Positions 20,505 to 62,309 of a stretch of DNA of 64,000 nucleotides are shown one piece after another. The DNA is taken from NCBI GenBank assembly GCA_964633445.1, contig CAZWFW010000001.1, positions 6,339 to 70,338 on the forward strand, given 5' to 3'. The notes under the pieces are model-generated. The model made no database searches. It was not told the DNA's origin and saw only the letters and a list, made by a program, of their open reading frames with translations. This DNA is from Candidatus Undinarchaeota archaeon. Lineage in GTDB: Archaea > Undinarchaeota > CAZWFW01. The number at the start of each line of letters is the position of its first letter. Within the stretch, counting starts at the first letter, position 1. Made by a program: the position numbers and the translations under genes.

Positions 20505-23500
20505 TTGAGGGGATTCCAACATACAGGTATGAAAGCCATTTTCAAAGACTTTTGCCCAAACTGTAATGGGGAAATAGATGATGAGAGACTTTGGCATAAA
20601 GTTCCTTGCGAAAAGTGTTTACCCTTATCTTTGGACAAAGTTAAAAAACTAAGCGAAAATCTCAGCAATTTAGAATTTAAAGAGCTAATTTACGAGTTAC
20701 TAAATGAAAGAGGAACTCTAAAGAATTATTCAAAAATATATGAGCTGGAGAGAAGGGTTGAGGAAGTTAACAAGATTTTTGAGGCATGTATAGGCAGCGG
20801 TCTTTGGTCTGCCCAGAAAGTTTGGGTAAAGAGAATTTTAAACAAAGTAAGTTTTGCTTTGATAAGTCCTACAGGAATGGGAAAAACAACGTTTGGTATG
20901 GTAATGTCCCTTTATTTGGCAAAGCATGGTAAGAAATGTTACATAATTTTGCCAACGACGATCCTTGTTAAACAAATAAACGATAGACTTGAAGAGTTTA
21001 TGGAAAAAAGCGGGGTTAGAGTTAGAGTTTTAGCATATCATACCGAATTAAAAAAAGGCGAGAAAGAGGAGGTAAAGGAGAAGATAACTAAAGGAGAATT
21101 CGATATATTAGTAACATCAAGTCAATTCCTAGCAAGAAACTTTGAGATAATAAAAAAGCAGAGATTCTATTTCATATTTGTGGATGATGTTGACGCTTTT
21201 CTTAAAGCATCCAAAAACATTGACAGGGTTTTGTTTCTCATGGGATTTTCTGAAGATGCCATCAAAGCCGCTATGGAGATTATTAAAATTAAAAAACAGT
21301 TAGTTGTCAGGAGGGATAAAAATCTCGAAGATAAGCTAAAAACTCTTGAAAGAAGTTTGGAGGAGTTTAAGGATGTCGAAAGCATTCTTGTGGTTTCCTC
21401 AGCAACTGGTAAGGTTAAGGGCGATAAGGTAAAAGTTTTTAGAGAATTACTCAACTTTGAAGTTGGCACTGCAAGGGAAGGGGCTAGAAATATAGAGCAT
21501 ATTTGGCTTGAAGGCAAGCTAGAGGATATCTGTGAAATAATTAGGAAAATGGGTGGTGGTTGCTTAATATTTGTTCCTATAGATGCTGGTACAGAGCTTG
21601 CCAAGGAAATTGAGCAGTTTTTAATTTCGAAAGGAATTAACGCTAAAGCTGTTCATGCAAAAACTAAAAAGAGTGTTATTGATCGCTTTGCTAAAGGGGA
21701 AATTGATGCGTTGATAGGAGTAGCGAGTTATTATGGTGTTATTGTGAGAGGATTGGATATTCCCGAGAGGGTTAGGTATGCAATATTTTATGGAATTCCG
21801 AAATTCAAATTCTCCTTAGAGATAAAGGAGAGGAATCCGATTAGGGTTCTGTCCCTGCTATCTACCTTAAGGGAATTTTCAAGTAACAAAGAAAGAGTTG
21901 ATAGAATGATTATAAAATTAAGAAGGATACTGTCAAAGCTGTCACCAGAGGATTTGAGGAAAGTTGAGGAAAGCCAACAGTTAAATGATTTTTTGGTGTA
22001 TGTTAAGCAAGAATTTGAAAAAGCTGCTGAATTTTTGCAGAATATGCTCAAAAATAAGGAGGTTCTAGATAAAATAGGAAAAAGCCCGTATATTTCTCTA
22101 GTTAAAGAAAGTGAAGGATTATTCATAAAAATACCTGATGTAAGAACATACATACAGGCTACAGGTAGAACTTCAAGAATGTATGCTGGTGGTATTACCA
22201 AAGGAGCTTCCTTTGTCTTTATAGATGATGAAAAGGTGTTTAATGGTTTGAAAAGGCAGCTGATATTACTTGATGAGGAGTTCAAAAGTATTGGTGAAGT
22301 TGATCTTAAGAAGATTAAGGAGGAGATAGAAAGGGATAGGAAATTGCTTACTGAAATCAGGGAGGGTAAAGTTAAAGTTGAGGCAAAAGAACCCGTTAAA
22401 TCTTGTTTGTTTATTGTTGAATCCCCAAACAAAGCAAAAACAATTGCAAATTTCTTTGGTAGACCATCTAAGCGTAGAATTGGTGAATTGGTTGCTTATG
22501 AAACACATACTGGAGATTTCGCTTTAACAATAATTGCAACTGGTGGACATATTTTAGATTTAGCTCATGATGGTATATATGGGGTTAAGAGGGTTAATGG
22601 TAAATTTATTCCGATCTACACGACAATTAAAAAATGTAGGAAATGTAATGAGCAATTTGTTGAGGGTGATGTATGCCCGAATAAGAAATGCAATTCAAAG
22701 GACATATTTGATAGCAGGTATACAATTGAAGCATTAAGGCATCTTGCAGATGAAATAGGATATGTTATAGTCGGTACAGATGCTGATTCGGAAGGTGAGA
22801 AAATTGCTTGGGATGTAGCAACATTAATCGCACCTTTTGCAAAAGAAATAAAGAGAGCTGAGTTTCACGAGGTTACTAGGAGAGCTATTTTGAACGCTTT
22901 GGAAAATCCAAGAGAAATTGACGAATTTAGGGTTAACGCTCAAATTGTAAGGCGTATTGAGGATAGGTGGATTGGCTTCTACTTAAGCCAAGATTTATGG
23001 AGAATATTTGAAAAGGGTTGGCTTTCGGCTGGTAGGGTGCAAACGCCAGTACTTGGCTGGGTAATTGAGTTTGAGAAGCTTGCAAGAAAGAAGAAGTCAG
23101 TAGTTAGGATAGTACTTGAGAATGATGCTGTTGTGGATTTTGAGTTTAAAAACATTAGACAGGCTAAGAAATTTGCTGAAGATGTTGAGGAAGCGTATGT
23201 GGAAATACTTGAGGAGAAAGAGGAGAAAATAAAGCCGAATCCCCCATATACAACTGATACTTTACTAAGGGACGCTTCTCGCTTCTTCAGACTTGATGCT
23301 CCAAAGGTTATGCAAATTGCGCAGGATCTTTTCGAGGCTGGGTTATGCTTGACACCAGACACCTACGTAATTATGCATGATGGAAGTATTAAGAAGATAG
23401 GCGATATCTCCGAAAATGAAAATGTTTTGGGCTTGAACAATCTACATGAGATGCCTGCAAAGGTACTAAGGTTTTGGAAGATACCGTATAAAGGTGTGAT

Positions 23501-25598
23501 CAAAGAAATAGTGCTTGAGAATAATTATAGCATAAAGGCTACTCCAGATCACGGAATTTTTGTTTACAGAGATGGTAAATTTGGTTGGGTTTCAGCTAAG
23601 AATGTAAGGGTTGGAGATTATGTGGCAGTAGCTTTCAATGTCAACATTAAAAGAGAAAGCTTAGGTTTACTCGAATTATTGGCGAAGCTTGGAATATTGG
23701 ATATATGCGTCGAATTCAAGAAAGATTCAAAACTATTTGAAAAGCTTAAAAAGAGAGTTGATGGAAGTAAGGCAAGTGCAAAATATAAGTATATGGGAAG
23801 CAGGGCAATTCCTTTAAAGTATTTAGATAAATGGGGCATTGATCTAAAAGCCGTTGAAAGGGAAGCAACCACCATTTCCAAGCAGAGATCCTCAGCTGAA
23901 AAAATTCCAATTTTTAAATTAAATAGCGATTTTTGGTACTTCGTTGGACTGGTTATGGGTGGTGGAACAATCGAAGAAGAGAAAATTGTAATATCTCAAA
24001 AAGATGCTAAGGAAATCAAAAGGATACTTGAAAATGTGTTTCCATTTGCCAATGTGAGGATTGCTGGCACGCAAGTTTACCTTGCTAATTCGATTATAGC
24101 AGAGATTTTAAGAAAACTGGATGTAAGGGGCAAGTTAAATGGTTTAGTGTTTTCACTGCCAGAGGATTGCATAAATGCTATGATAGCTGGATATATTGAT
24201 GCTGATGATAGCATTTCGTTGAAGTTTGACAAGAAATGTTGTAAAAACAATCTTAGAATTGTTATAAGTAATAAAGAAAGGGAAAAAATTGAGAAAATTG
24301 GATATTACCTATGCTTGATTGGTATTTTGAACACATTGCATAAGGATGAAAAAACAGGTATTTGGAAACTAATTTTAGGCAATAAATCGCTTAAGACGTT
24401 TAAAAAGAAGATTGGTAAACATCTTAGAACTAGGAGAAAGATTTTTGAGAAAGCATACAAAGCATGCGCAAGTGAGCATCTAGAGTCAGATTTTGTTCCG
24501 TTTAGTAAATTTTTCAAGTTACTTAAATTTGGGAAAGGTGTTGAGGGTAGAATTCTCAAAGAACTTTGCACTGATGCTCGAAATTTGGATGACTGTGCAT
24601 GTATACAAAGAGAAAAGCTTAAGAAGGTAGTTAAATTGGCTGAAGACACTGATGTTAAGACATTTTTGCTTGAACTGTTAAATGCCAATGTTTCATGGGT
24701 TAGAGTGAAGGAGGTTAGGAATAGGCAATATAACGGATATGTTTACGATATAACAACTGCAACATCAAACTTCTTTGCTAATGCGATACTTAACCACAAC
24801 TGCACCTATCACCGTACAGATTCAACAAGAGTATCAAAGGAAGGTTTGAACGTTGCTAGGGAATTGGTTGAGGAAAGTTTTGGCAAGGAATATTTCAAAG
24901 CAAGAATTTGGTATATGGAAGGTGCCCATGAGTGCATAAGGCCCACAAAACCACTTACGAGAGAGTATCTCGAGGAGTTGATTAATACTGGCGCGCTAAC
25001 ATTGCCTAGACAATTAACCTTTTGGCATCTTGTAGTTTATGAGCTCATTGTGAATAGATTTATGGCAAGTCAGATGAGAGAGGCTAGAGTTGTTAAACAG
25101 AAAGTAAAAGTAAGTGTTAAAGATGTTGAAAAAGAAGTTGAAGGATACGCTAAGGTAGCTGATGAAAGTTTCCTAAAGATAACTAAGGTACCAATGATAC
25201 CCGAGTTTAGGAATGGTAGGGTAAAAGTTAAAGATGTAAAGGTAATGAGGGTACCATCATCCAAGTTGCTTACGCAAGCGGATCTCGTTGCTTTAATGAA
25301 GGAGAGGGGTATAGGTAGGCCATCAACCTATGCTACAATAATTGCTAAATTGTTCAAAAGGGGTTACCTTTACGAGCTTGGTAAGGAGAAGAGGATTAAT
25401 AAAATTGTGGCAAGGAAAATTGGCAAGGAAGTTTTTCAGTATTTGATTAGCAATTATCCTCATTTAATTAGCGAGGAGCGTACAAGGAAACTTGAGGAGG
25501 ATATGGATATGATAGAGGAGGGTAAGAAAGATTATCAGGAAGTTCTAAATGAAATTTACAAGGAAATCTTTGAGCCAGAAATACTCAAGCAATATTAA
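20505..25598 (+). CDS. rgy: reverse gyrase, interrupted in-frame by an intein
   Basis: N-terminal zinc finger CPNCNGE..CEKC. Helicase-like domain with Walker A SPTGMGKTT and a DExx-type box FIFVDDVD. C-terminal topoisomerase IA domain including the active-site motif LTREYLEELI. The predicted extein is 1212 aa, typical for reverse gyrase. The track start is a TTG at 20505; an in-frame ATG lies at 20529. Confidence 0.9.
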   Translation: MRGFQHTGMKAIFKDFCPNCNGEIDDERLWHKVPCEKCLPLSLDKVKKLSENLSNLEFKELIYELLNERGTLKNYSKIYELERRVEEVNKIFEACIGSGLWSAQKVWVKRILNKVSFALISPTGMGKTTFGMVMSLYLAKHGKKCYIILPTTILVKQINDRLEEFMEKSGVRVRVLAYHTELKKGEKEEVKEKITKGEFDILVTSSQFLARNFEIIKKQRFYFIFVDDVDAFLKASKNIDRVLFLMGFSEDAIKAAMEIIKIKKQLVVRRDKNLEDKLKTLERSLEEFKDVESILVVSSATGKVKGDKVKVFRELLNFEVGTAREGARNIEHIWLEGKLEDICEIIRKMGGGCLIFVPIDAGTELAKEIEQFLISKGINAKAVHAKTKKSVIDRFAKGEIDALIGVASYYGVIVRGLDIPERVRYAIFYGIPKFKFSLEIKERNPIRVLSLLSTLREFSSNKERVDRMIIKLRRILSKLSPEDLRKVEESQQLNDFLVYVKQEFEKAAEFLQNMLKNKEVLDKIGKSPYISLVKESEGLFIKIPDVRTYIQATGRTSRMYAGGITKGASFVFIDDEKVFNGLKRQLILLDEEFKSIGEVDLKKIKEEIERDRKLLTEIREGKVKVEAKEPVKSCLFIVESPNKAKTIANFFGRPSKRRIGELVAYETHTGDFALTIIATGGHILDLAHDGIYGVKRVNGKFIPIYTTIKKCRKCNEQFVEGDVCPNKKCNSKDIFDSRYTIEALRHLADEIGYVIVGTDADSEGEKIAWDVATLIAPFAKEIKRAEFHEVTRRAILNALENPREIDEFRVNAQIVRRIEDRWIGFYLSQDLWRIFEKGWLSAGRVQTPVLGWVIEFEKLARKKKSVVRIVLENDAVVDFEFKNIRQAKKFAEDVEEAYVEILEEKEEKIKPNPPYTTDTLLRDASRFFRLDAPKVMQIAQDLFEAGLCLTPDTYVIMHDGSIKKIGDISENENVLGLNNLHEMPAKVLRFWKIPYKGVIKEIVLENNYSIKATPDHGIFVYRDGKFGWVSAKNVRVGDYVAVAFNVNIKRESLGLLELLAKLGILDICVEFKKDSKLFEKLKKRVDGSKASAKYKYMGSRAIPLKYLDKWGIDLKAVEREATTISKQRSSAEKIPIFKLNSDFWYFVGLVMGGGTIEEEKIVISQKDAKEIKRILENVFPFANVRIAGTQVYLANSIIAEILRKLDVRGKLNGLVFSLPEDCINAMIAGYIDADDSISLKFDKKCCKNNLRIVISNKEREKIEKIGYYLCLIGILNTLHKDEKTGIWKLILGNKSLKTFKKKIGKHLRTRRKIFEKAYKACASEHLESDFVPFSKFFKLLKFGKGVEGRILKELCTDARNLDDCACIQREKLKKVVKLAEDTDVKTFLLELLNANVSWVRVKEVRNRQYNGYVYDITTATSNFFANAILNHNCTYHRTDSTRVSKEGLNVARELVEESFGKEYFKARIWYMEGAHECIRPTKPLTREYLEELINTGALTLPRQLTFWHLVVYELIVNRFMASQMREARVVKQKVKVSVKDVEKEVEGYAKVADESFLKITKVPMIPEFRNGRVKVKDVKVMRVPSSKLLTQADLVALMKERGIGRPSTYATIIAKLFKRGYLYELGKEKRINKIVARKIGKEVFQYLISNYPHLISEERTRKLEEDMDMIEEGKKDYQEVLNEIYKEIFEPEILKQY
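23346..24800 (+). mobile_element. intein (485 aa) with LAGLIDADG homing-endonuclease domain inside the reverse gyrase topoisomerase domain
   Basis: It starts with Cys (FEAGL|CLTPD). Block B TxxH (ATPDHGIF). LAGLIDADG-type motifs DFWYFVGLVMGGG and INAMIAGYIDADDS. It ends ..ILNHN followed by +1 Cys (CTYHRTD). All coordinates are in frame with the host ORF. Confidence 0.8.
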
Positions 25599-48924: not shown

Positions 48925-50145
48925 TCAGGTGAGAACGCCGTAACCGATTAATCTCCACCTACCTTTAACTTGCCTACTTATTGTTACCCTATCCCCCTCC
49001 TCAGCACAAATTGGTAGTCTAAATACCACCTCGACATATTCCTTTTTAACATTTTTAACTATACTCAGCGTTGTTCTCGTGCCGCAAGTTATCATTAATG
49101 GTTCGTTAACTTTCAAAGGTTCAACCTTAATCTCTTTATCCAACCCAACTACCCTCTCTAACAAATTATATTCGATTGTTGCTTGCATTAACACATCTGG
49201 CAGCTTGTCTGGTAAGCCAACAACATTACCAACTAAGGCATCGGCTTTGGTTAAGTTAGGGTCAAGATACGTGCCGATAGCTATTGAACCTCCAGCATGT
49301 ACCTCTTCGAGCTTTACATCACCAGCATATAAACTTGCTGTCTCTGTAAATAAACTTTGCCATCCCTTTCTCTCATCATATATTCCAGGCCTAATTTCTA
49401 TTTCCTGCCCAACCTTTAATTTTCCTTTAATTAAACTACCTCCGAGTACACCTCCTACAAGCTCCTCTGGAGGCATACCTGGCTTATTAACATCAAAACT
49501 TCTAGCAACATAAAATTTTGGGTTTGCATCCAGATCACGTTTTGGTGTTGGTATGAATTCCTCAATTGCTTGAATTAATGCATCTATGTTAACCTTATGC
49601 TGTGCCGAAACCGGTATTATGGGAGCATCTTCAATTTGCGTGTTTTCTAAAAATTTTTTTATTTCTTCATAATTCCTCAACGCTTTTTCCTTGTTAACAA
49701 GATCTATCTTATTCTGGACAACAACAACATTCTTGATTCCAGTTATCTTCAGAGCAATTAAATGTTCCTTTGTTTGAGGTTGAGGACAATGTTCGTTAGC
49801 TGCAATTATTAGCAAAGCGCCATCCATTATTGCAGCACCACTCAGCATTGTAGCCATTAGCGTTTCATGACCAGGCGCATCAACAAACGATACTCTTCTT
49901 AAAAACTCCGTTTTGCTTCCACAGTGTTCACATGTTTCCTTGGTAGTGTAAGCTTCGGGCTCCCCACATCTTGGACATTTATAAAAATTCGTATCTGCAT
50001 AACCTAATTTTATTGTTATTCCACGCCTTAGCTCCTCAGAATGTGTATCCGTCCACTTTCCTGTTAATGCTTCGGTAAGTGTTGTTTTACCATGATCTAT
50101 GTGACCTACTAACCCAATATTTACCTCTGGCTGCTTCTTAATCAT
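48925..50145 (-). CDS. eif2g: translation initiation factor aIF2 gamma subunit
   Basis: G1 GHIDHGKTTL and NKID (G4). The characteristic zinc ribbon CPRCGEP..CEHCGSK in the G domain. 406 aa. Confidence 0.9.
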   Translation of the reverse strand: MIKKQPEVNIGLVGHIDHGKTTLTEALTGKWTDTHSEELRRGITIKLGYADTNFYKCPRCGEPEAYTTKETCEHCGSKTEFLRRVSFVDAPGHETLMATMLSGAAIMDGALLIIAANEHCPQPQTKEHLIALKITGIKNVVVVQNKIDLVNKEKALRNYEEIKKFLENTQIEDAPIIPVSAQHKVNIDALIQAIEEFIPTPKRDLDANPKFYVARSFDVNKPGMPPEELVGGVLGGSLIKGKLKVGQEIEIRPGIYDERKGWQSLFTETASLYAGDVKLEEVHAGGSIAIGTYLDPNLTKADALVGNVVGLPDKLPDVLMQATIEYNLLERVVGLDKEIKVEPLKVNEPLMITCGTRTTLSIVKNVKKEYVEVVFRLPICAEEGDRVTISRQVKGRWRLIGYGVLT

Positions 50146-50528
50146 TTCTCTTTCTTGGGAATTAGCTCCTCAAGATTTCTCTTGCCTCTCTTAACAACAA
50201 CGGTATTTATTTGAACAATATCTTGAGATATTGTATTACCTCTTACTCTTTTTCTTCTCCTCATACCCCTCTCCTTAGGCCTATAACCTGGACCAGAAGT
50301 GAGCAAAACATATTTTACACCAGGCCCATTAATATCCTTACGCATCGGGAAACCATCTTTATCTGTTCCGCCAGTAATTTTTAGCTTATAACCAGCTAAG
50401 CCTAAAGGGGTAGCATCAAATTCTTGCCCTATTTTCATACCTATCAAAAATTTAGCTTTGTTCTCATCCACTTCAAGCTGATGTGCCTTACCGCTTTCGG
50501 GATCTGAGATAACTATTTTGAATACCAT
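50142..50528 (-). CDS. rps6e: 30S ribosomal protein S6e
   Basis: 128 aa. KIVISDPESGKAHQLEV..GKDGFPMRKDINGPGVKYVLLT is diagnostic for S6e. 4-nt overlap with eif2g. Confidence 0.85.
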   Translation of the reverse strand: MVFKIVISDPESGKAHQLEVDENKAKFLIGMKIGQEFDATPLGLAGYKLKITGGTDKDGFPMRKDINGPGVKYVLLTSGPGYRPKERGMRRRKRVRGNTISQDIVQINTVVVKRGKRNLEELIPKKEK

Positions 50529-50881
50529 CCTATATCACCACCTAAATTTTATAGACATTATTAATGTGGTCACAATTTTAATAAAATTATTCAATTCCAA
50601 AAAACTGTCAACTTACCCTAGCATAGAACAAGTTATACAAAACACAAGCAAAAATTCGTAAATCGCTTCAAATCTTTCAAAAAGCAATTATAAATCTCCC
50701 TTAGTTATGTGTCTCATCAAGAAAAATTTTGCATGTTGCATTCCTCAAAAGAATTTCATAATTTAACTAAATTTTTCAAAAGCATGATAGCATGACCCTC
50801 TATTGCAAAGAATTAGCTTTCTTTAAGGGCAATGTTAAGTTGACAAGTTGAAATCTCAAAGGTCTGTCCAGCAGCAAAAAA

Positions 50882-52621
50882 CTATACTCTTTCAATTTTT
50901 ATCCTCTTTATCTCGTTAAGCAATTCTTTTTCCTCGTCGCTTAACATATTTAGCAGTTTTTCCTCAATGATACTGATATCCCTGTCCTCAAGAAAAACAT
51001 AAAGCATATCTCCCTCATTTGCTTGTCTGCCAATTGTTAAACCCTCTACTGCAATCGCAACGCGCTTGCCTTTCTTTGCCTCTTTAATATTTTCACCATG
51101 CTCCTGCATGCTTTTCAGTCTTCCTACAATTCTTCCATCTTTTCTCATTAAATAACAATTTGGTTTTAGAGTTCCGCAAATCACCTCTATACCGAAAATT
51201 GCTGGCTTACTTTGCCTAAATATATAACCTGGTAGGATCTTTATCTTTGCTGGTAGTGTAGCCTTCAGTTTTTCAATCTCCTCTTTTTTAGCCTTTTCAA
51301 TCCACTTCTCGTAATCCTCCTTAAGCTTGTAAATAACATTGCTCAGGAAAATCTTTATTTTATAATCTTCAGCAAGCTTTTTAGCGTCTTCATTGACATA
51401 TACATTAAATCCAAAGATAACAGCTTTCAACGGATCCTCAGCCCTAACACTCTTAACCTCCATGATGTCAGCTCTTGAAATATTACCGACATCTGCCTTC
51501 CTTATAGGAACTACGCCCTCAAGTAGCTTTGTTAACGCTTCTAACGAGCCTAGAGTATCGGCTTTAACGATTGCCCCTATATTCTGCTTGTTAAATATTA
51601 TTTTAGCTATTTCCTTTTGAACATCTTTACATGCTTTATCAATGTCTTTTGCGACAATTAAAGGTGAACCAGCTAGTGCTTCCTCAATATTTTTTGCGAG
51701 AATCCTTATACCTGCCGCAGCGTAAGCTTCGTCAATTTTCCTAAATTTTCTCTCACTTTCTCTTAATTCGCTTAAAGGCTTAGGTTTAAGGATCGCCCTT
51801 ATTTTCGTTATTATTGGCCCTTGCTTACCAGCCAGAACGATCGTATCCCCTTGCTTAATATGCCCATCGTAGAGAATAACGTCTAGTGCGATTCCAGCAA
51901 GCGTCTTTTTAACGTCGAGCACAACACCTTTACCAGGGCCCTTGACCTCGATTTTTAGCTTATCCTCAAGATATTTTTGTGCTAAGCCAGTTAAAATCAT
52001 TAGCAACTCAGCAATACCCTCACCAGTTTTTGCTGAGATCGGCACGATGCATATCTGCTTTGTAAAATCAGTAACTCTGTCGAAGCGATCCGCATTAAAG
52101 TTATACTTTGCAAGCTCCTCAACAATCTTGTAAATTCTCTCCTCAAGCTTTGCTACAGCATCGTCTCTTTGATTTCTCAGGTTTTGTGTAAATGGTTCAT
52201 GGCTACTTTGCCAACCATCTATTAAATCAATTTTGTTTGCGGCAACAATAAAGGGAACTTTGTATTTTCTCAAAATTTCTACGCATTCAATTGTTTGGGG
52301 CTGAAAGCCTTGCACTATGTCAATTACCAAAATAGCTAAATCAGAAATTGATCCTCCTCTGGCTCTCAAATTTGTGAATGCCTCGTGTCCTGGCGTATCT
52401 ATGAAGAGCAATCCAGGTATTGTTATTTTTATTTTCAAAGTCTCTAACAATCCCTTGCAAATTTTTTTAATAGCACTTATTGGTATTTCAGTAGCTCCTA
52501 TATGCTGTGTTATACCTCCTGCCTCTTTTGCCGCAATTGCAGTTCCTCTAATTTTATCGAGTAGTGCTGTTTTTCCGTGATCTACATGCCCAAGCACTGT
52601 AATTATTGGCTGACGAATCAT
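50882..52621 (-). CDS. infB: translation initiation factor aIF5B (IF2 homolog)
   Basis: G1 VLGHVDHGKTALLD, DTPGHEAF, and NKID. 579 aa, colinear with aIF5B. No intein insertion. Confidence 0.9.
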   Translation of the reverse strand: MIRQPIITVLGHVDHGKTALLDKIRGTAIAAKEAGGITQHIGATEIPISAIKKICKGLLETLKIKITIPGLLFIDTPGHEAFTNLRARGGSISDLAILVIDIVQGFQPQTIECVEILRKYKVPFIVAANKIDLIDGWQSSHEPFTQNLRNQRDDAVAKLEERIYKIVEELAKYNFNADRFDRVTDFTKQICIVPISAKTGEGIAELLMILTGLAQKYLEDKLKIEVKGPGKGVVLDVKKTLAGIALDVILYDGHIKQGDTIVLAGKQGPIITKIRAILKPKPLSELRESERKFRKIDEAYAAAGIRILAKNIEEALAGSPLIVAKDIDKACKDVQKEIAKIIFNKQNIGAIVKADTLGSLEALTKLLEGVVPIRKADVGNISRADIMEVKSVRAEDPLKAVIFGFNVYVNEDAKKLAEDYKIKIFLSNVIYKLKEDYEKWIEKAKKEEIEKLKATLPAKIKILPGYIFRQSKPAIFGIEVICGTLKPNCYLMRKDGRIVGRLKSMQEHGENIKEAKKGKRVAIAVEGLTIGRQANEGDMLYVFLEDRDISIIEEKLLNMLSDEEKELLNEIKRIKIERV

Positions 52622-52690
52622 ATTAGATTAAACTTAGGGGTTTATTTATAAAAAACTTCAAACTAAATTTATCAGCAGGAGAATATTAGC

Positions 52691-55600
52691 CTAAAATAAT
52701 CTAAGTGCCCTGCACCTTGAGAAATAGGCGAGTGCCAGAATAACAGCTAAAATAATTGCATAAGTGTTTATACCACTTGCAATCTTAATCGTTACGGGAA
52801 TCCAAGGAGTCACTTGAACGTCCTCCACTATATCAACACTTATTGATTTTTCAGGATAATCACATATATCGCCATAAGGGCCTTTTTCACAAACTTTAAT
52901 TCCAATAGTGTCAGTACCAGCCTGTGCACCCAATAGAGTAATAGTAACTTTAATTTCGCTAAAACCTTTTACATTCTGTATGCAGAACTCAGAAATACCA
53001 CACTTAAAGATGCCTGATCCTGTATCAGGATCAGCTCCTGAAACATCCTCTATTTTAACATTACCTTTGTTTATGTCTATGGTTATCGTAATATTTCTTT
53101 CCTCCTTTAATCTTTTACCTATTTTTAGCAGAATTTCTCTATCTTGACCCAAAGGGATTTCTACTTTAGTCTGGGAAATAGCAGCAGATATGCAAGCGCC
53201 ACATCCACTATTTATTCCGCAATCTACATCCTCCTCATTGCAAATGTTATCATCCTTAATATTATTCTCGCAATGATTATCGTACCAAGTTCCATTTAAG
53301 CAAACCCCTCCTTCATATATATGGCACCAGTTATCTGTTGGCTTGTCGCAGCATTTGTTAAAGTTAATATCCGTGTTATATGGAGAGTCATCATCCCAGT
53401 GATGTCCAAAGGCTTCGCAGATTGCCGAGTCCAGCTCTTTCTCATATTCGCTTCCCCAATATATCTTTCCAGCTGACGAATTATATCTCGATCCAGTTAG
53501 GTTAACGCATGCATATTTGGTGCCATTATATACAGTAACAATTTCATTCAAATCTTTTTCTTTAACAAAATTACTCTCATCAGAGCTCACGTCAAAGTAA
53601 CACTTGTATACATAAGATTGAGTACCTTCGTCAGAATCTGAACCATAACCAGATGTTATCGTATCGTTACCTGGGCAGAGGTAGCAGTTGTAGCAAAGAG
53701 ATGGCGTATCTGTTGCATTTACTCTCCAAATCTCGTTTAGTTTACATGATTTGTAAACAGTTATGGAATGCTTACTTTCCTCCTCACCAAAAGTACCATC
53801 CGTGCTTAATATGCTTAACCTTGTTTTAAGTTCAGATTGATTAACAATACCATCACCATTTTCGTCTGCTGTAAATGGTAGGTCTTCAACTTCACCAACA
53901 CCACAGTGAGCTACCTCATAAAACCCTCCTCTACTTCTTTTTATGCATTTATCGAAATTATAAAGGCATTCTGCTAAAGTTAGTGGTTCCAGATCTTGAA
54001 AGCTTGCATATGCCCACGCTTGACTGCAGTTATAAGAAATTTGCTCGGTTATGTTAAGTGATACTGTGAGGTCATCCAACCATGATAAAGCAAGATCCAA
54101 CTTTATGTCTGCAATCTGGTTAATCTTAATAGTTAGATCTCCAACAAGATCGTTTTCCCAGCCTATTGTGAGATTTAATGTGATGTTGGCCAAATCCTTA
54201 TTTACAGGAGAAACTTCTATAGAGTTAACACTCTCGGATGCTACACTTGGCACATATCCCTCGCAAAGGGAATATTTTTTCTCAATTTCATCTTTTAACT
54301 TGCTTTTAATTTGGGAATCAGTTACAACGCCTTTATTTTTAATATCATTGTAAACAGTGTTGTAGTTTGTGTAGTCCTCAGCATAATTCTCAAATTCAGT
54401 GGAATTCATACCGAATATTTCAGTAGTATTTATATCTGAAAGATTCATCATTATATTAAAGGTTTCAGTTGGTAGTGGTGAAGGAAGACTTGCAGAAACG
54501 CTTTCTATACCTCCATCTACGCCGCATTTACTCTTTATTAATGCTTCAAAAGATTTCCAATTTGAATTTATATCATTAGCTAGCTCAGTAGCATTGCAAT
54601 AACCCCAGTCAGTTGCTATGAACCCACAAATTTTTGTTACTTCGTAATACGTGTCTGGTGTAACAGCTATGTTAGCTGGTGGTTTTTCAACATAGAATAT
54701 TGGGTTATACGAGGGGCAAACACTTGGACTTATATAACCAAGGGAGGTTAGTTTGTTAATCAGTTTTTGCTTTAGAACAGTTTTATCTATATAACCAGAA
54801 GAATTTAGTTCATCAAAAGTCTCATTATAATTTACAGGATTTTCGGCATAAGTCTTGAACTCGGAGGCACTTAAGCCAAATAGTTTTGTTACGTTAACAT
54901 CATCTAAAGTTAATAGAACATTAAAAGATGTATATCCTGCAGGAACATTTGCTTGGACATCCTTAATATTTTCCTCCTTAACACCACACTCGGTAGCAAT
55001 GGCACTTTTAAAACTCTGCCAATTACCATTTATATCATTAGCTAAACTATAAGCATCACAATAACCACTCCAACTGCTACTTGTTGCTATAGAAACGCAT
55101 GAGGAGTATTGAGTTACAGTTAATTCACATTCTGTAATATTTGGAGGCACTTCATGCTGTCCTAGGACAAATGATTCGGAAAAATAAATATCTCCAACTC
55201 TTTTTGGACCCTCTGTCTCGGTAGGAACATAAATACCTTTGGCTGTAAGATTTACCCAACCAGGAATTCCCCCACTTCTACCAATCTCAACAGTCTTGTT
55301 AATAGCTTCTATGAGCGCTCTTCTCCATGCCCAACTTTTATACCCTTTACCTATCAATTTTAGCGTATAATTTTTCCTAAAAACTTGCTGTTCAGGAATT
55401 GTAAAATTTTCCAGAATTCCGGTATTACCTGCAGTAAGATTTAAGCTTTGATGAGCAACAAATATACCATATTCAGTGCTTAAAACATTACTGCCATCTA
55501 AAAGGCTTGCATTAACTCCTAACATTGGAATTCTGTCTACACAAGCTTCTATAAATGCTGAGAAAGTGACAGTGACATTCTCACCGGAACGCCATATATT

Positions 55601-57562
55601 GTTTGCATCTCTTATCCCAGGGTTGCTTAATCCAAGAGATAAACTATCAATTGATGTTAAATTTAAACCAATACGTGACAATTCTTTTTCTAAAACATTT
55701 TCTCGAAGCTCTCCAATAACTCTACACATTGGACAAATCCATCCTCCCGAAATTGTAAGTGTGGAACTGGACCCAGAAGTAAGTGAGCAACCCCCACTGA
55801 AAGGATTGCAACCTTCAGAAGGGATGGTATAGGATACTATGCATGGCTGCGTTACGGTTGTGCTACCTGCCTCATTTTTATATTCCCATTTACATTGGGG
55901 AGGATCACACCATGTTCCATATTGTACACATCTCCTACAACTTTCAGCAGCCTTTATTTCAGTTTTCTCAACTGGATGGGGGCAAAAACTTAAGGAAGCT
56001 GCACCAAAACTACAACTTGCATTTTTATATAAGCTTAATGGCTGGTATAGCGTTGTTGTTTCTCCTCCACTACAACATGGCCAAGGATTACTTGGAGAAT
56101 AAAGACATCTCGCACATTCCGAGGTACAACATCCTGCGTATGCAAATTTCGTATTAAGAAACAAAGTGAATAAGAGTAGAACGATTGGAAGGTATTCCTT
56201 CCTTCTAAAGAACTTGAAGAATAACATCGTTGCTAATATAATGGTTAGAGCTACTAAAATATATACTTTGTTCGACTTCTTAACTTCAACTTTTTCCCCA
56301 AAACCTGGAGTTTCCTCACCAGTTTCTTTTGCAGGCATGAAGCTTATGCAATCCATACAATTAAGTTTTTTCTCAAAATCATCGCAAATTCCATCATCAA
56401 AGCATTGATTGGCATTCAAATATTTGACTCTCCCATCCTCAGCAAGTATTATCTCAGGTTCTAAATCATAATACTCTATTTGCTCTTCATCAAAAACACG
56501 ACCATCTTTTCCTAATTTTACAACAACCTTATATTTCAACAAATCTTCTTTGGCTCTAAATTTGAACGTAAAACTTTCTGGTTTAAAAGTAAGGTCTATT
56601 GTCTTATTCTCACTAAACACCTCCTCATTATTCCTATAGATTTCAAGCAAAAGATATGCATTGCTGACAATTGATTTATCTGCAGGCCCTACAACCGTAA
56701 CGTTAATTTCAACTTCATCACCTTTTTTATAGACGTCCTTCTTATTTTCAATACTTAGTATTGTGCCACCTTCACCCATGATAACAGCTCTGCATTCGCT
56801 CGTAGCTAATAAATTGTTCTGCAAATCGTAAATCTCTATAACAACTCTATAAGTTCCTGGGATTGTTATGCTAATAGGAATCTCAATAACTTTTCTAGCA
56901 TTACCTTCTAGCTCTCCAATATCAACCTCCTTCTCAAAGATAACATTGCCAGAGTAAGTACCAATCGCTTTTACTAATCCCTTTACTTTTATGCTAAAAG
57001 GATTTTTATTTATTAAGGGAGCGATTAGACGAATTTCGGCTGATGGTGGTATTTCTCTCCCCCAATCTGAATAGGAATACCATACAATTCTCCTGACAAT
57101 TGTGTCTGAGCGTTGAATTTGAATAACTTTTAAATAAACAGTTTTCTCAAATGAAACCTTTGGTAAGGTTGCAATGTCGCTTAAGTTCACATCACTTGAT
57201 AACCATGTAAGAGGCTTTCCAAACTCGTATACTTTGCAATATACCTTATAATTATCTCTTGGAAGTTTCTCTGGTAGTGTTAAGCTAAAACTTAAATCTT
57301 TTACCTCTCTTGAATCTAGAAGCACTGTCTCAGTATTTCTTGCGAAGATGCTGGAATCAGATCCTGCAAGAATGACCTCAACGTTAAATTTCTTTACGAC
57401 GTATTCCGTATTAGCAACTCTTACAGAAACATCTAAAGCATTACCTACATTCTCAGCTTCACATTGAAGCAAAGTAACACAATTTGCCACATTTAATATA
57501 ACAAGCTGTGCTAGGCAAATAATAAAAAAAACCTTAAAATTTTTCAATCCTCGCCTAACCAT
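52691..57562 (-). CDS. giant cysteine-rich surface protein (signal peptide, Ig/CARDB-like beta domains, internal TM/second signal-like segment, tandem about 115-aa repeats, C-terminal TM anchor)
   Basis: 1623 aa with an N-terminal signal. There are more than 60 Cys residues concentrated in two regions. An internal hydrophobic pair lies around aa 432-480. Duplicated modules [29 protein letters not shown] / [29 protein letters not shown]. The C-terminal [17 protein letters not shown] is a TM anchor. Confidence 0.65.
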
Positions 57563-57999
57563 TCCTCATCACATCTCCTATAATCATATATTTCATTATC
57601 ATTAAAATAAATTCTTATTTCTCTTTCAGCTGTTTTTCTTGAATCAGAAGCATGAACAATATTATTTGGCAAGCCTATTGCAAAATCTCCTCTTATACTA
57701 CCTGGTAAAGCTTCCCTAGGATTTGTTGCGCCTACAAGATTTCTAACAACTTTAATAGCCTCCTTACCCTCAACAACCATAACAACGCTGGGGGCTGAGG
57801 TTATATATTTTATTAAACCTTCATAAAATGGTTTGCCTTTATGCATCTCATATTGCTTCTCCGCAAGCCTTTTATTAATCCAAATCATCTTCATTGCAAC
57901 GATTTTAAGCCCTTTTTTCTCAATTCTTTTAACAACCTCTCCAACTAGCCCCCTAACAACACCATCTGGTTTTACTATAACAAGTGTTTTTTCGATCAT
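57544..57999 (-). CDS. ndk: nucleoside-diphosphate kinase
   Basis: [21 protein letters not shown], the active-site His in NIVHASDS, and YFNDNE. I place the start at the internal MIEKTL, which gives 151 aa. Confidence 0.85.
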
Positions 58000-58049
58000 G
58001 CTATATTTTATGATAGTAAAGCAGAAATTTATATCATAAAGCATGATAC

Positions 58050-58676
58050 ATGAACATTGAGAAAATTATAGATGCTCTAAAGGAAGCAAGAATTTGTGAG
58101 AAGTTGCCTTCCGAGAGATACAAGGATCCGTTCAAAGTTTTGGTTTCTGCCTTTCTTAGCACGAGAACCAAAGATGAGGTTACTGAGCAAGCTACCAAAA
58201 AACTTTTCAAAGTTGTTAATAATCCTGAGGATTTGCTTAAGCTTGATGTTGAGCAAATCGAAAAGCTAATCTATCCCGTTGGGTTTTATAAGGTTAAGGC
58301 TAGAAGGCTGAAAGAACTTGCCGAACAAATTTGCAAAGAGTTCAATGGCAAGGTGCCAGATAATTTTAATGATCTAATAAAACTTAAAGGTGTTGGAAGG
58401 AAAGTAGCGAATGTTGTTTTAGCTTACGCTTTTAACAAAGATGTTATAGCTGTAGATACTCATGTGCATAGAGTCGCTAACAGGCTCGGTATTGTTAACG
58501 CAAAAACTCCAGAAGAAACTGAGAAAGCGTTAAAAAATGTAGTACCAAGAAGATTTTGGAAAGATATAAATCATCTGTTTGTTAACTTTGGAAAGAAAGT
58601 TTGCAAACCAGTTAAGCCGAATTGCAAAGCCTGTCCAATAAGGAAATTTTGCAACCTTTCACAGCATCCAAAATGA
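58050..58676 (+). CDS. nth: endonuclease III (HhH-GPD DNA glycosylase with [4Fe-4S] cluster)
   Basis: Hh[20 protein letters not shown] with the catalytic Asp in VDTHVHRV. Cys ligands [17 protein letters not shown]. Confidence 0.85.
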
Positions 58677-58800: not shown

Positions 58801-61278
58801 ATGCTAAAGATGATAAGTGCAAACGCCATTCCCAAAATATTTAAGGGAAAACTTGGTGTTGTTATAGTTGTGGTATTTTTAGTAATTTTAGTTGGTCTCT
58901 TAATTCACCATACAACTGTCTCGAATGTCTCTAACGCATCCTCAACTGAGGAGGTAGGTCAGGAAACGCCGTCTCCTGAATCATCTCCCGAAATAACTAA
59001 AGAAATTGAGGAGGAAATTAAGAAAGAGGAAGAACTTGAGGAGTCTGACAAAAGCCCTCCAGAGATTTTTGTGAAGTTATCTAAGGAAAAGGTTAAAAAA
59101 GGAGATACTGTTGACATTGAGGTTACAGCAAGAGACGAGTCTGGAGTTGCTAGTGTTGTTGCGGAGGTTGAAACTGAGGGAACCTTCAATTTACAACTTG
59201 CTGAGGGTAGTGAATATAGTGGTATATGGAGGGCCTCATTTGTCATTGTTTCCGATTTGGAGAAGGATAAGAAGTATAAGATAGTTATTAAAGCATTTGA
59301 TAGAAGAGGAAATTTGGCCGTAAAAACTTTGGAATACTACGATCCAGTTACCAAAATTGTGATACCTAGAGCTGATGATGATATGAACTATCAAACCCAG
59401 GACTCAGATTGTTCATCGAATCCTGAATATAAATATTATACTTGCAGCAATTGCGATGAAAATGATATTCCTGGTTGGTATATGCTTAGCTATGATGATT
59501 CCTCATGGCCAACGGGCTACGCACCTTTTGGTCAACCTGCTTGGGGAGAATGCACTCAAGCCTTAACTTCAGCTCCAGATGATTTGTTTGTAAGGAAGTG
59601 GTTCTTTATTCCTGGCACTCCTCAAGGCGCTACATTAAGATTGAGTTATGATGATGGGATTAAATGCTACATTAATGAGAATGTTGTAATTAATGTTATA
59701 AGCGAAGCTCATGGCCCTTCATATTGGAATAGGCAAGTTACTATATCTAGCTCTGTTTTGAAGTCTGGCCAAAATCTTTTAACTTGTTGGGTTGCTAATG
59801 GTGGTGAGAATAGTGGCAGTGGAGGAGGCTGGCTTGATTTAGAGCTAGAAGTTACTTATGAACCTATATATATAACGAATGTTACAGTTGAAACAGATAA
59901 ACAAGCCTACGATCCTGGTGATGACGTCAACATAACTGTTACAGTCTTCTCGGACTCCACAAGACTAAGCAACGTTCCCGTTACCATAAAGATCTATGAT
60001 CCAGACGAAAAAATTGTTTTAGATAAACAAGCGGTAACTGATAACAACGGTGAAGTGAAACTCACATATACTTTACCTGTCGATGCGAAGTGGGGTGTTT
60101 ACGTAATTAATGCTACTGCTGAAATGGAAAATACATTCAGCACAATTAAAAAATTTGGTGTTGGTCCAGCTGTTGATATATTTGACATAAAAACAACTCC
60201 TCAAAAGGTTAAGGCACCTGCTAATGTTACAATAACTGCAGACATTTCAAATATAGGTAGCATGAACCTTAGCAATTTGGTTGTTGAAACAAAGATTATT
60301 GGAGGGTCATGGTTTGATGCTTCGTGGAATTACAGAGTACCTATAACAATAACCGAGCAAAGTGGGAATGTTTTGACAGACTATCAAGTTCTGGTTACTT
60401 TAGATACCGCTTCTTTGATTTCAGCAGGGAAAATGCGAAGTGATTGCGGAGATATAAGGTTTGCTGACTCAAATGGAAATACATTAAGCTATTGGATAGA
60501 GTCTGGTTGTGGTTCAGCTAATACAAAAATCTGGATAAAAGTTCCAGAGATTATGGCTAATAAGAATACAACAATTTATGTTTACTATGGGAATCCTAAC
60601 GCAGAAAGTATGAGTAATGGAAATGATGTATTTTTAGACTATGAAGAAACACTTTACTGTCAAGGTTCAACTGCTTCAGGGGGATGTTATGTAACGTTCT
60701 CTCTTTCTAATGAAAAATTTGCTCCTTATCAATCTTCAGGCTATGGTGTATTAGATTGGAAAATGGCTGGAGACTTTAATTCCGGAGGAAGTTATTCATC
60801 CTCGGGCTGTAGCTGTGTCTCAGAAAGCTATGAAAGAGCAAGATTATGTGCAGATTCAACTACTTGTTCAGATACTCATCCAAATTGTCTTGGATGCTAC
60901 TCAACTGGATATCAAGATTGTACGCTGCGCTCTCCTTCTGGCTTCCCAAAGGATGTTAGCAGCTATATAATAGATAAAACTTCTGTGTCTTTTGCAACAG
61001 ACACTACGAATGAAGTAAACTATAATCCTGGCTGTGGTTATTATTACAAATTTGAGTTTCATTTGAAAGCTAAAACTCGCAAGTATGTCTCTCCAGAACC
61101 AACAACAAGTGTAGGTGATGAGGAAACTTTAAGCTCTGTAATACTGGCATCACTTTCAAAAACAATCTCAAGCTTAGCAGTAGGCCAAACAATAAATGAT
61201 TTCCAATTAGGTAAAGTAGATGTTGACTGCTGGGATGTAGGGAATTATAACATAGTCATAACCGTTAAGCAAGGATGA
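58801..61278 (+). CDS. secreted/membrane-anchored protein containing a DUF2341 domain and Cys-rich C-terminal region
   Basis: N-terminal TM LGVVIVVVFLVILVGLLI and an acidic/Ser-rich linker. SWNYRVPITITEQSGNVLTDYQVLVTLDTASL...CGDIRFADSNGNTLSYWIESG...KIWIKVPEIMANKNTTIYVYYGNPNA matches the DUF2341 consensus. Confidence 0.6.
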   Translation: MLKMISANAIPKIFKGKLGVVIVVVFLVILVGLLIHHTTVSNVSNASSTEEVGQETPSPESSPEITKEIEEEIKKEEELEESDKSPPEIFVKLSKEKVKKGDTVDIEVTARDESGVASVVAEVETEGTFNLQLAEGSEYSGIWRASFVIVSDLEKDKKYKIVIKAFDRRGNLAVKTLEYYDPVTKIVIPRADDDMNYQTQDSDCSSNPEYKYYTCSNCDENDIPGWYMLSYDDSSWPTGYAPFGQPAWGECTQALTSAPDDLFVRKWFFIPGTPQGATLRLSYDDGIKCYINENVVINVISEAHGPSYWNRQVTISSSVLKSGQNLLTCWVANGGENSGSGGGWLDLELEVTYEPIYITNVTVETDKQAYDPGDDVNITVTVFSDSTRLSNVPVTIKIYDPDEKIVLDKQAVTDNNGEVKLTYTLPVDAKWGVYVINATAEMENTFSTIKKFGVGPAVDIFDIKTTPQKVKAPANVTITADISNIGSMNLSNLVVETKIIGGSWFDASWNYRVPITITEQSGNVLTDYQVLVTLDTASLISAGKMRSDCGDIRFADSNGNTLSYWIESGCGSANTKIWIKVPEIMANKNTTIYVYYGNPNAESMSNGNDVFLDYEETLYCQGSTASGGCYVTFSLSNEKFAPYQSSGYGVLDWKMAGDFNSGGSYSSSGCSCVSESYERARLCADSTTCSDTHPNCLGCYSTGYQDCTLRSPSGFPKDVSSYIIDKTSVSFATDTTNEVNYNPGCGYYYKFEFHLKAKTRKYVSPEPTTSVGDEETLSSVILASLSKTISSLAVGQTINDFQLGKVDVDCWDVGNYNIVITVKQG

Positions 61279-62309
61279 AGAATTTAAAGCTAATTATTAT
61301 AGCTTTACTATTTTTACTCTTTGCTGAAAATTCTTTTTCACAAACAATTTATGGAAAGGCTAAGTCAGAATTATGCATAATTTATTCTTGTATTCCTGAG
61401 AACTTCACTTATGCTCAAGCTCTGCAGGAAATGAGAATAATCTATTCATGTATACCTAAAAATTTCACTTATACAGAAACTTCTGGAAAATTTAGGGTAA
61501 TCTATTCATGTATACCTAAAAATTTCACTTATACACAAATTTCTGGAAAAATGAGGGTAATTTATTCTTGCATACCACCTAATTTTATTTATCAAAGTTA
61601 CGAATTCGAAGGTTTTGAAATAAATGAAACCTGCCCACCCCAGCCAGCTGATCTGAAAATTCTAGACTATGATATTATTCCATTGTCAAGCCCCTTGGAG
61701 TCATTACAGAAATTCAGGCTCGAGGTTCTTGTCACATCAAACACAACGTGCTATGCAACTCTACTATTTAAGGATTACTCCACGTCTTTTTATATTCGTG
61801 CAAATGAAACAAAGGAGCTAGCAATTTATTTCGATGAAAATGTAAGTACAGAAAGCTTAACAAGGAAAATAGAAATAAGCTATCCACTTGAAGTTAATGA
61901 AAGCGATAATAAAAAAACAATAGTTCTTTACGTTCAGAACCCACCTAACGTTTTGAAAGCAAACGAAACATATGATTTTTCAGCCTCTGAGGGTAAGATA
62001 ATCGCAAGTGTTGATCTGAAATCTAGTGATGTTTGGACATGGATTGAGATTGAAGAAAACGATGATGCGAGGGGAATGAGTATAAAAAAGATTGTTAGGC
62101 AGGATGGAAAAGTTATTGAGAGATGGTTTAGAATAGGAAACAAGGTATACATTTTTGACGATCCATCAACCTACATCGTATACTATGTGAAACCATATCT
62201 GCCTGTAGTTGCCTATGAAACTAGCTTATTCATAGCAGTTCTAATTTCACTGGCAATAGGGATAATTGTTAGTTTGAGAACGGTTAGACGAAGTAAGATA
62301 GGAAGTTAA
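61275..62309 (+). CDS. secreted protein with four tandem 20-aa repeats and C-terminal TM anchor
   Basis: Signal peptide MKNLKLIIIALLFLLFAENSFS. Repeats (I/V)IYSCIP.NFTY....(M/F)R encoded by exact 60-bp tandem units. C-terminal hydrophobic helix LFIAVLISLAIGIIVSL. 4-nt overlap with the upstream gene. Confidence 0.55.
   Translation: MKNLKLIIIALLFLLFAENSFSQTIYGKAKSELCIIYSCIPENFTYAQALQEMRIIYSCIPKNFTYTETSGKFRVIYSCIPKNFTYTQISGKMRVIYSCIPPNFIYQSYEFEGFEINETCPPQPADLKILDYDIIPLSSPLESLQKFRLEVLVTSNTTCYATLLFKDYSTSFYIRANETKELAIYFDENVSTESLTRKIEISYPLEVNESDNKKTIVLYVQNPPNVLKANETYDFSASEGKIIASVDLKSSDVWTWIEIEENDDARGMSIKKIVRQDGKVIERWFRIGNKVYIFDDPSTYIVYYVKPYLPVVAYETSLFIAVLISLAIGIIVSLRTVRRSKIGS
61376..61600 (+). repeat. 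tandem direct repeat, period 60 bp, about 3.7 copies (coding)
   Basis: The units starting at 61381, 61441, 61501 and 61561 are in exact 60-nt register. Copies 2 and 3 are more than 90% identical (ATCTATTCATGTATACCTAAAAATTTCACTTATACA...). Confidence 0.8.

Follow-up and report, generated by a model that had tools for sequence, protein, structure and literature searches.

In Sulfolobales the genes slaA and slaB, which encode the two partners of a surface layer (S-layer), are adjacent. SlaB is a protein of 475 amino acids (aa) with three beta-sandwiches and a C-terminal transmembrane (TM) segment, and SlaA is a beta-rich, glycosylated and more variable partner of 1424 aa (PMC10903991). A second parallel is the cell-wall island of Haloquadratum walsbyi, where, within one population, unrelated surface-glycoprotein genes alternate at one locus between conserved flanks; homologous recombination is invoked there, with virus avoidance as the proposed driver (PMC4535781). 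The present analysis concerns 64,000 nucleotides (nt) of DNA from a Candidatus Undinarchaeota archaeon (GCA_964633445.1, contig CAZWFW010000001.1; this whole stretch is called the window), in which a giant open reading frame (ORF) of 1623 aa separates ndk from aIF5B (infB) in a cluster of translation genes. We propose that in this ORF the two halves of an uncharacterised archaeal two-component surface glycoprotein, an anchor module (A) and a distal module (B), are probably joined in one polypeptide, and that the ORF occupies a site at which such cassettes are swapped.

In architecture A and B appear closest to the SlaB/SlaA pair, without homology to it. Module A has a signal peptide, three beta-sandwiches and, in an AlphaFold2 (AF2) model, a TM helix at aa 431–452; B resembles SlaA in being a large (1100–1400 aa), beta-rich and more variable distal subunit, prone to N-glycosylation as judged from its sequons, and a thermophilic context, indicated by a reverse gyrase gene in the window, is shared too. 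However, SlaB has a 132-aa coiled-coil stalk, whereas module A has a four-cysteine knot and a linker of ~25 aa modelled at low confidence, with no long helix, and searches of Pfam, NCBIfam and the PDB together with a structure search found no sequence or fold homology to SlaA or SlaB. Here, moreover, the anchor gene comes first, B is rich in disulfide-type cysteines and has an anchor of its own, and A and B are fused. SlaA and SlaB are defined by an S-layer lattice and high abundance, whereas A and B are known here from genes alone. The likeness to the H. walsbyi island lies in conserved flanks and non-homologous exported cargo at the same locus, apparently within one species. That island is a dedicated region of many genes, including genes for glycan synthesis, whereas the ndk–aIF5B interval holds one fused gene or two genes only, with no glycosyltransferase or envelope-biosynthesis gene; it lies inside the ndk–aIF5B–S6e cluster, takes its start codon from ndk and has a stalk/anchor protein module as one flank.

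The giant ORF and the A/B gene pair

The ORF runs uninterrupted from 57562 to 52691 on the minus strand. Its ATG at 57562 lies 19 nt inside ndk, so that a first-pass annotation of this DNA was right to describe a 1623-aa ORF between ndk and aIF5B, on the same strand and starting 19 nt inside the ndk 3' end; the gap from its stop codon to aIF5B is 69 nt and not the 70 nt given there. An exhaustive phmmer search with aa 475–1623 against 1.84 billion representative proteins returned 32 matches, 30 of them at E <1e-10. A word-indexed search of a 5.8-billion-protein collection found the protein itself only, with either the whole protein or the 28-sequence family alignment as query, and thereby missed all 30 family members and the sister-genome fragment described below. 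A finding of 'no homologs' from a word-indexed search is unreliable for long, compositionally biased proteins, and the label 'orphan' would be wrong here.

Most phmmer matches are proteins of 700–1200 aa that carry their own signal peptide and align from about aa 510 of the giant protein onwards. In all four contexts that could be inspected (L012, L013, L014 and L015) a separate A gene lies directly upstream of the B gene and overlaps it by ATGA, the split products being ~450–480 aa (A) and ~700–1200 aa (B). These stand-alone A proteins match aa 1–455 of the giant protein (E 2e-60, 1e-56, 1e-33 and 4e-38) and stop just past a TM helix with its basic tail (KKRR). The giant ORF is colinear with A plus B, and the fused layout with its TM hairpin is also found in four distant homologs (P0136, P0143, P0144 and P0147). 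In the alignment, fused proteins run on past the end point of A into a second helix that ends in AYA↓G, VYA↓G, NA↓DP or QA↓DP. Judging by these homologs, the giant ORF is a fusion of a conserved A/B gene pair, that is, a two-gene unit made one rather than the single surface-protein gene that had been annotated. In a rough neighbour-joining tree of conserved B blocks, which carries no support values, fused forms stand in three places beside split forms, a scatter that suggests repeated fusion; the ATGA overlap would make this easy. When neighbouring genes become fused, this is classically taken as evidence that their products act together. Of the full-length B homologs, 23 in number, about 15 carry a signal peptide but no further TM segment, a pattern that fits a division of labour with A as the membrane anchor; the giant's B module and about seven others have one.

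Around these homologs, a distantly related split A–B pair (L013 8637–13148; S6e 48% identical) adjoins S6e convergently, away from aIF5B and aIF2gamma, an arrangement that may be fortuitous or may go back to an old tie to the translation cluster. Gene pairs for T2SSF, a type IV pilus/archaellum platform protein, lie 1–7 kb from A–B on two unrelated contigs (L012 13479–15307; L014 1–1086), and in L011 a VWA-domain protein is encoded directly upstream of a fused homolog.

Since A and B genes overlap by ATGA elsewhere, a single-base error would fuse them, and the giant ORF could in principle be a pseudogene in decay, or two real genes joined by a frameshift or by faulty assembly. We regard this as very improbable. 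Records from different collections, a 70-kb NCBI/ENA contig, a 61-kb JGI contig and a 5-kb ENA contig, all encode the 1623-aa product without interruption and with few substitutions, and because three source records agree in this the ORF is not an artefact; it is real. In the four distant homologs the fusion point is the same and the hairpin with its signal-peptidase-type sites has been kept, a 4.9-kb open frame at 36% GC would not last without selection, and codon usage matches the genome. The comparison of GC content and codon usage with the neighbouring genes that the first-pass annotation had proposed gave a native profile, with no mark of recent foreign origin: GC is 0.363, GC at third codon positions 0.272 and the codon-use correlation with the other window genes r = 0.975. 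These values do not set the ORF apart from the rest of the window, on which ground a signal of horizontal transfer was rejected.

From N- to C-terminus the ORF is composed as follows.

57482–57562, minus strand: N-terminal signal peptide/TM segment, aa 1–27 (hydropathy; AF2 helix at aa 2–23)
57544–57562, minus strand: start segment common to the two cassette alleles, ATGGTTAGGCGAGGATTGA (MVRRGL); identity between the alleles stops exactly at the ndk stop codon
56273–57481, minus strand: module A ectodomain, aa 28–430 (AF2; homology to stand-alone A genes)
56141–56272, minus strand: internal TM hairpin, aa 431–474 (AF2 helices at aa 431–452 and 455–474; hydropathy)
55703–56140, minus strand: cysteine-rich head of module B, aa 475–620, 17 cysteines (cysteine count)
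55133–55702, minus strand: conserved block 1 of module B, aa 621–810, nine sequons (near-invariant alignment columns; beta-sandwich in AF2 at a predicted local distance difference test, pLDDT, of 80–95)
54248–55132, minus strand: two tandem alpha/beta repeats of ~125–140 aa, aa ~821–950 and ~977–1103
53363–54247, minus strand: conserved block 2 of module B, aa 1106–1400 (family alignment consensus; AF2 pLDDT 78–96)
52793–53362, minus strand: stalk module, aa 1401–1590, with cysteine knot NWC..HC..DVDCG..C.AC and an immunoglobulin-like (Ig-like) domain
52694–52792, minus strand: C-terminal TM anchor and short basic tail, aa 1591–1623 (hydropathy; AF2 helix)

The protein contains 61 cysteines (3.8%), dense at aa 475–620 (n = 17) and aa 1171–1460 (n = 20), so that the more than 60 cysteines in two clusters reported at first reading were counted correctly, and both motif strings quoted then were found. 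The sequence has 32 N-x-S/T sequons where its composition predicts 15.7 +/- 3.6 (z = 4.6), a surplus of about twofold that is absent from the cytoplasmic window proteins aIF5B, aIF2gamma, reverse gyrase and HypF. Hydropathy places hydrophobic segments at aa 5–27, 430–453, 457–474 and 1590–1615; the C-terminal anchor annotated earlier is thus present, as is an N-terminal signal, but the internal hairpin at aa 430–474 had been overlooked.

Module A was modelled from a five-sequence alignment (AF2 model m191a59d48895, mean pLDDT 72) as three beta-sandwich domains at ~aa 32–126, 136–261 and 267–364, of which the second and third reach pLDDT 80–95. They are followed by the knot C387..C393..C402..C405 ('CFDDGxC..E..C.DC'), whose cysteines are invariant in the alignment. 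Pfam hits to DUF7490 (20.4 bits against a threshold of 27), MG2 and A2M_BRD, seen in some members, were sub-threshold. For module B, modelled from a 28-sequence alignment (mean pLDDT 67), AF2 is confident (80–95) at giant aa ~594–874 and ~1144–1374 and in the second internal repeat. Block 1 is marked by the motifs AC.[ND]R[IV]P, WAWR and GD[IL]Y[FY]S and block 2 by SW.W..L, LA.C[LM]YN[FW][DE].C, YE[VA]A..G.GP and VY[KR].C, while the alpha/beta repeats between them differ in number and sequence between homologs. The stalk module is 78% identical in aa sequence to P0129, a protein of the alternative cassette considered below, 57% to the orthologue in sister genome L006 and about 40% to P0133 of the same genome.

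No family reached threshold when the giant protein was searched against Pfam, NCBIfam and PHROG, and no match was found for the A/B family in profile searches of PDB sequences or in NCBIfam and PHROGs. The beta-sandwich fold class implied by the Ig/CARDB-like modules of the first annotation is backed by AF2, although the CARDB and MG2 assignments stay below the Pfam gathering threshold; with other large proteins of the window there is only weak MG2-type domain similarity. A protease trap of the alpha-2-macroglobulin (A2M) type, or an enzyme scaffold, either secreted or anchored, is scarcely credible as an explanation of the protein; the matches cover single Ig-like domains only. The thioester (TED) domain, bait region and A2M signature, all readily found in the real A2M of the window, are absent, and no catalytic family was matched in Pfam or NCBIfam; the absence of a recognisable catalytic domain agrees with what had been noted before. 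The core of B is an undescribed family assembled from common extracellular building blocks.

The hairpin that joins the modules is made up of A's former C-terminal anchor, a basic loop (FFRRKE) and B's former signal peptide, ending in AYA↓G; its second helix looks like a signal peptide, and AYA↓G like a signal-peptidase-type site. A TATA-like run, GTATATATTTTA (56230–56275, minus strand), lies ~30–40 nt before the in-frame ATG of Met446, ahead of the signal-like helix. Conceivably an internal start at Met446 yields B as a protein of its own, but TATA-like runs of this kind occur often in DNA as AT-rich as this.

The ndk–aIF5B interval as a cassette site

The archaeal cluster L7Ae–S28e–L24e–ndk–infB–S6e–eIF2gamma–Utp24 has been described (PMC10833476). 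In L007/L008, the next-nearest relative with a long contig, L7Ae–S28e–L24e–ndk–aIF5B–S6e–aIF2gamma is intact and 37 nt lie between ndk and aIF5B. The corresponding features of the window are these.

57544–57999, minus strand: ndk, 151-aa form of the NCBI call (Pfam NDK, E 3e-54), whose last 19 nt including the stop codon overlap the giant ORF
52622–52690, minus strand: 69-nt spacer with T-runs and a TATA-like box (from sequence)
50882–52621, minus strand: aIF5B (infB; Pfam GTP_EFTU, IF-2 and GTP_EFTU_D4)
50529–50881, minus strand: aIF5B–S6e spacer of 353 nt, whose ends match the flanks of an insert in L006 at 74% and 86%
50142–50528, minus strand: S6e
48925–50145, minus strand: aIF2gamma

The longest frame for ndk is 57544–58044. 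As in the canonical cluster, ndk, aIF5B, S6e and aIF2gamma keep their order and orientation, the last three in succession though with the 353-nt spacer between aIF5B and S6e. The window differs in the 4.9 kb that part ndk from aIF5B (4872 nt of ORF and 69 nt of spacer), in a divergent HhH-GPD endonuclease III gene (58050–58676) upstream of ndk in place of L7Ae–S28e–L24e, and in the absence of Utp24/PIN downstream of aIF2gamma. Because both L007/L008 and the published cluster show the intact order, the giant gene, by the synteny comparison called for at first reading, interrupts an ancestral adjacency. That ndk adjoins infB in most archaea, as was also stated, holds for L007/L008 and the described cluster, but 'most' is too strong: the adjacency is missing in two Woesearchaeota contigs and one metagenome contig, and in a published metagenome-assembled genome a dUTPase gene lies between ndk and aIF5B. 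One of the Woesearchaeota contigs (L003 6787–10756) has genes for 133-aa and 332-aa proteins in this place. Opposite-strand genes lie between aIF5B, S6e and aIF2gamma in L003, and a 332-aa AbrB-type gene precedes aIF5B in L005. The translation cluster is loosened in other lineages too. A protein search with aIF5B gave one sister at 90% and next-best matches at ~56% identity, the named matches at 52–56% being from Hydrothermarchaeota, Methanopyri, Thermococci and others; contig scans of genomes and metagenomes with aIF5B gave distant loci only (44–53% identity), of little use for close synteny.

The evidence for replacement comes from contigs L009 (ENA) and L010 (JGI), whose 5' ends are 100% identical to the ndk 3' end over 141 or 127 nt. 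In L009, positions 1–141 equal window 57684–57544 and similarity is absent beyond. At their 3' ends ~690 nt match the window at 93% identity, from the last part of the giant ORF through the spacer into the start of aIF5B; on this side, identity to L009 rises from noise to 88–100% within ~100 nt, between 53260 and 53160, and the last 118 nt (spacer and aIF5B start) are 100% identical. Between these flanks lie 4.37 kb without similarity to the window. The first gene of L009 starts at the same ATG inside ndk with MVRRGL, and its 541-aa product combines a signal peptide, sequence of the beta-sandwich type and a TM segment at the C-terminus; the gene overlaps by ATGA a second gene, for a cysteine-rich protein of 1101 aa with its own signal peptide. 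P0129, from L009/L010, matches the giant protein over its last ~220 aa only, at 78–80% identity, so that the two alleles share the start codon and these ~220 aa (stalk plus anchor) and nothing more. The slot looks as if it holds a different anchor-plus-distal pair in what is apparently the same species, and by this comparison the ndk–aIF5B interval is a replaceable cassette site. The products of both alleles have signal peptides and TM anchors, which would place them at the cell surface.

In the sister genome L006, whose aIF5B, S6e and aIF2gamma are ~90% identical to those of the window (S6e and aIF2gamma ~91%), the C-terminus encoded immediately before aIF5B is orthologous to that of the giant protein, at 57% identity. 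An orthologue at the same place and of such low identity implies that the insertion is older than the split of the two genomes and that it evolves fast. The orthologue of GCA_054010715.1 is incomplete, since its contig stops within the gene. The lineage-specific insertion of the first-pass annotation is therefore confirmed as belonging to a narrow lineage, but it is no one-off event, being one allele of a cassette with an orthologue at the same spot in L006. That genome has a second cassette between aIF5B and S6e (L006 2353–6605), with a MazF/PemK-like fragment and genes for 40-aa, 475-aa and 685-aa proteins. The 475-aa protein is weakly similar to the 541-aa protein of L009, and the 685-aa protein, P0133, has 64 cysteines and shares the stalk and anchor module with the giant protein. 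The aIF5B–S6e gap measures 353 nt in the window, 4.2 kb in L006 and 6 nt in L007; because the ends of the 353-nt spacer match the edges of the L006 insert, this spacer is an empty second cassette site.

Could the insert derive from a virus or mobile element, as a relic or as cargo? Bunyavirus Gn–Gc and flavivirus prM–E precursors have the order ectodomain, TM segment, basic loop, signal-like TM segment, ectodomain and TM segment, and are rich in cysteines and sequons. The giant protein shares this polyprotein-like topology, down to the small residues at –3 and –1 of an AxA site, as well as the cysteines and sequons, its family is patchily distributed, and a MazF/PemK-like toxin fragment stands beside the second cassette in L006. 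An envelope precursor of the Gn–TM–signal–Gc type, or a cell-fusion protein, inserted in the cluster is nevertheless highly unlikely. Neither PHROG nor BFVD (structural matches at E <= 1e-3) yielded any similarity to viral proteins, structure comparison did not detect the three-domain fold of class II fusogens and archaeal fusexins, and a search of IMG/VR contigs with the whole ORF, which would find close relatives only, found none. The interval has no integrase, att-like repeat or other element gene, and it is bounded by the ndk stop codon on one side and by a coding module common to the alleles on the other; GC content and codon usage are native, the split A/B pairs lie among ordinary cellular genes, and the protein itself, in a cellular context, is a fusion of two cellular genes.

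Expression signals and neighbouring genes

The 19-nt overlap with ndk, present in both alleles, suggests that transcription and probably translation of the cassette are coupled to ndk, with which the giant gene is probably co-transcribed. A TATA-like sequence lies in the 50-nt divergent region between ndk and nth. Downstream, the 69-nt spacer is a putative cassette terminator combined with a putative aIF5B promoter. Its TATA-like box, TTTTTATAA at 52646–52654, stands at –33 to –25 from the aIF5B ATG and is kept in L006 though the surrounding spacer has diverged; the 9-mer occurs eight times in 128 kb (both strands), and the ndk–aIF5B spacer of L007 has no such box. Because this conserved box precedes aIF5B, obligate co-transcription of the cassette with the translation factors is doubtful. 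Co-transcription, as first annotated, is likely for ndk but doubtful for the genes that follow, and aIF5B probably uses or has acquired its own promoter, with read-through at most. A scan for sigma-70 promoters and intrinsic terminators gave counts equal to those of shuffled sequence; this is a bacterial-type scan and uninformative for an archaeon.

Beside ndk and nth lies a second large-plus-small pair of exported proteins, encoded on the plus strand at 58801–61278 and 61275–62309 with a 4-nt overlap. The first product (825 aa) has MG2 and DUF2341 domains; the second (344 aa) has four tandem ~19-aa 'IYSCIPKNFTY' repeats, a C-terminal TM segment and nine sequons against 2.5 expected. The sequence of P0159, a weak match to the giant's cysteine knot, resembles by eye the DUF2341 region of the 825-aa protein. 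Elsewhere the window (36% GC) carries HypF and chemotaxis genes and, at 20505–25598 on the plus strand, a reverse gyrase (zf_Rg, helicase, Toprim and topoisomerase) with a LAGLIDADG intein. The presence of reverse gyrase indicates that the organism is a (hyper)thermophile. A2M is uncommon in archaea; a full-length protein of 1545 aa (MG2, A2M, TED and bMG10) is encoded at 12064–16701 on the minus strand. Upstream of it on the same strand lie genes for a 598-aa protein without a reliable family match (16708–18504) and a Yip1-like membrane protein (18501–19130).

Function and significance

From its sequence features the product is most likely a variable two-component cell-envelope or adhesion glycoprotein. 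We propose that module A (aa 1–455), with its signal peptide, three beta-sandwiches, disulfide knot and TM anchor, would form a membrane-proximal base, and module B (aa 475–1623) the distal, exposed, variable, disulfide-rich and heavily N-glycosylated part, to which a stalk and a TM segment of its own are added here. A change of frame at the ATGA overlap would have fused the two. The signal peptide of A would start translocation, its TM segment stop it and the signal-like helix restart it, so that both ectodomains come to lie outside the cell, where the protein would be disulfide-bonded and N-glycosylated after export; signal peptidase may cut at AYA↓G and release two subunits at 1:1. Translation would begin from the start inside ndk, on a transcript probably shared with ndk, while aIF5B would probably use its own promoter. 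With a conserved housekeeping flank on one side and the stalk module and aIF5B on the other to give recombination a grip, strains could exchange the exposed part for an unrelated one by homologous recombination. Selection by viruses, or by other partners able to recognise the surface of the cell, would be the likeliest driver.

Several points weigh against this proposal. Only two alleles and one sister genome are in hand, and switching within the population is read from 5.2-kb contigs. The giant's B module carries its own TM anchor, so that A is not strictly needed. The AF2 models are poor for the cysteine-rich head and the C-terminal cysteine knot (pLDDT <50), and a fold search with the B core returned single Ig-like domains as the sole structural matches, with no relative beyond generic beta-sandwiches. 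The TTTTTATAA box is an AT-rich sequence in an AT-rich genome, and read-through from the cassette into aIF5B is possible. The function is deduced from architecture, in an organism known from metagenomes alone, and why the gene lies within the translation cluster is a matter of conjecture.

One other possibility is that the protein serves specifically in adhesion or recognition, with surfaces, partner cells or symbionts as its targets, and is not a general part of the envelope or S-layer, in which case its variability would reflect ligand specificity. We consider this possible, though on balance doubtful. The modular Ig-like and SEA-like domains with a variable count of internal repeats would suit it, as would the rarity and patchiness of the family (30 representatives), more in keeping with an accessory trait than with an essential wall. 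Further candidates for surface proteins are encoded next to it at 58801–62309, and VWA and T2SSF genes lie near homologs. However, no known adhesin domain scored above threshold, and the conserved 1:1 pairing of anchor and distal protein with tight translational coupling resembles structural envelope pairs. A wall-like layer and an adhesin are functions between which sequence alone cannot decide, and in this respect the adhesin is inseparable from the two-component glycoprotein that we favour. A bolder extension of the latter, which we think rather unlikely, is that A–B is an unrecognised envelope system across thermophilic, AT-rich small-genome and acidic-proteome (halophile-like) archaea, that the fused form is a polyprotein cut by signal peptidase into stoichiometric anchor and canopy, and that ndk, aIF5B and S6e serve as recombination anchors for wholesale surface swapping between strains.

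Variable surface-protein loci and two-component archaeal envelopes are already known, and this is not categorically new biology. What is unusual is the recurrent fusion of anchor and distal proteins with an internal signal peptide, and a swappable cassette that borrows the start codon of ndk within a core translation cluster, with a second site one gene on. Archaeal surfaces are largely uncharted outside a few model organisms and most envelope proteins of uncultured lineages are unannotated; for these, the locus defines a conserved anchor-plus-distal pair without a Pfam family or structural relative, and its recurrent fusion provides Rosetta-stone evidence that the two proteins work together. 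Annotation pipelines should not label the 1623-aa protein as one 'adhesin', and primers in ndk and aIF5B could survey the diversity of surface types in the lineage. A supposedly rigid translation cluster tolerates cassettes at two of its junctions, apparently by means of a promoter of its own for the downstream gene. The locus provides a clean natural case of the replacement of a whole surface-protein cassette between housekeeping flanks, which is the expected footprint of diversification driven by viruses or partners.

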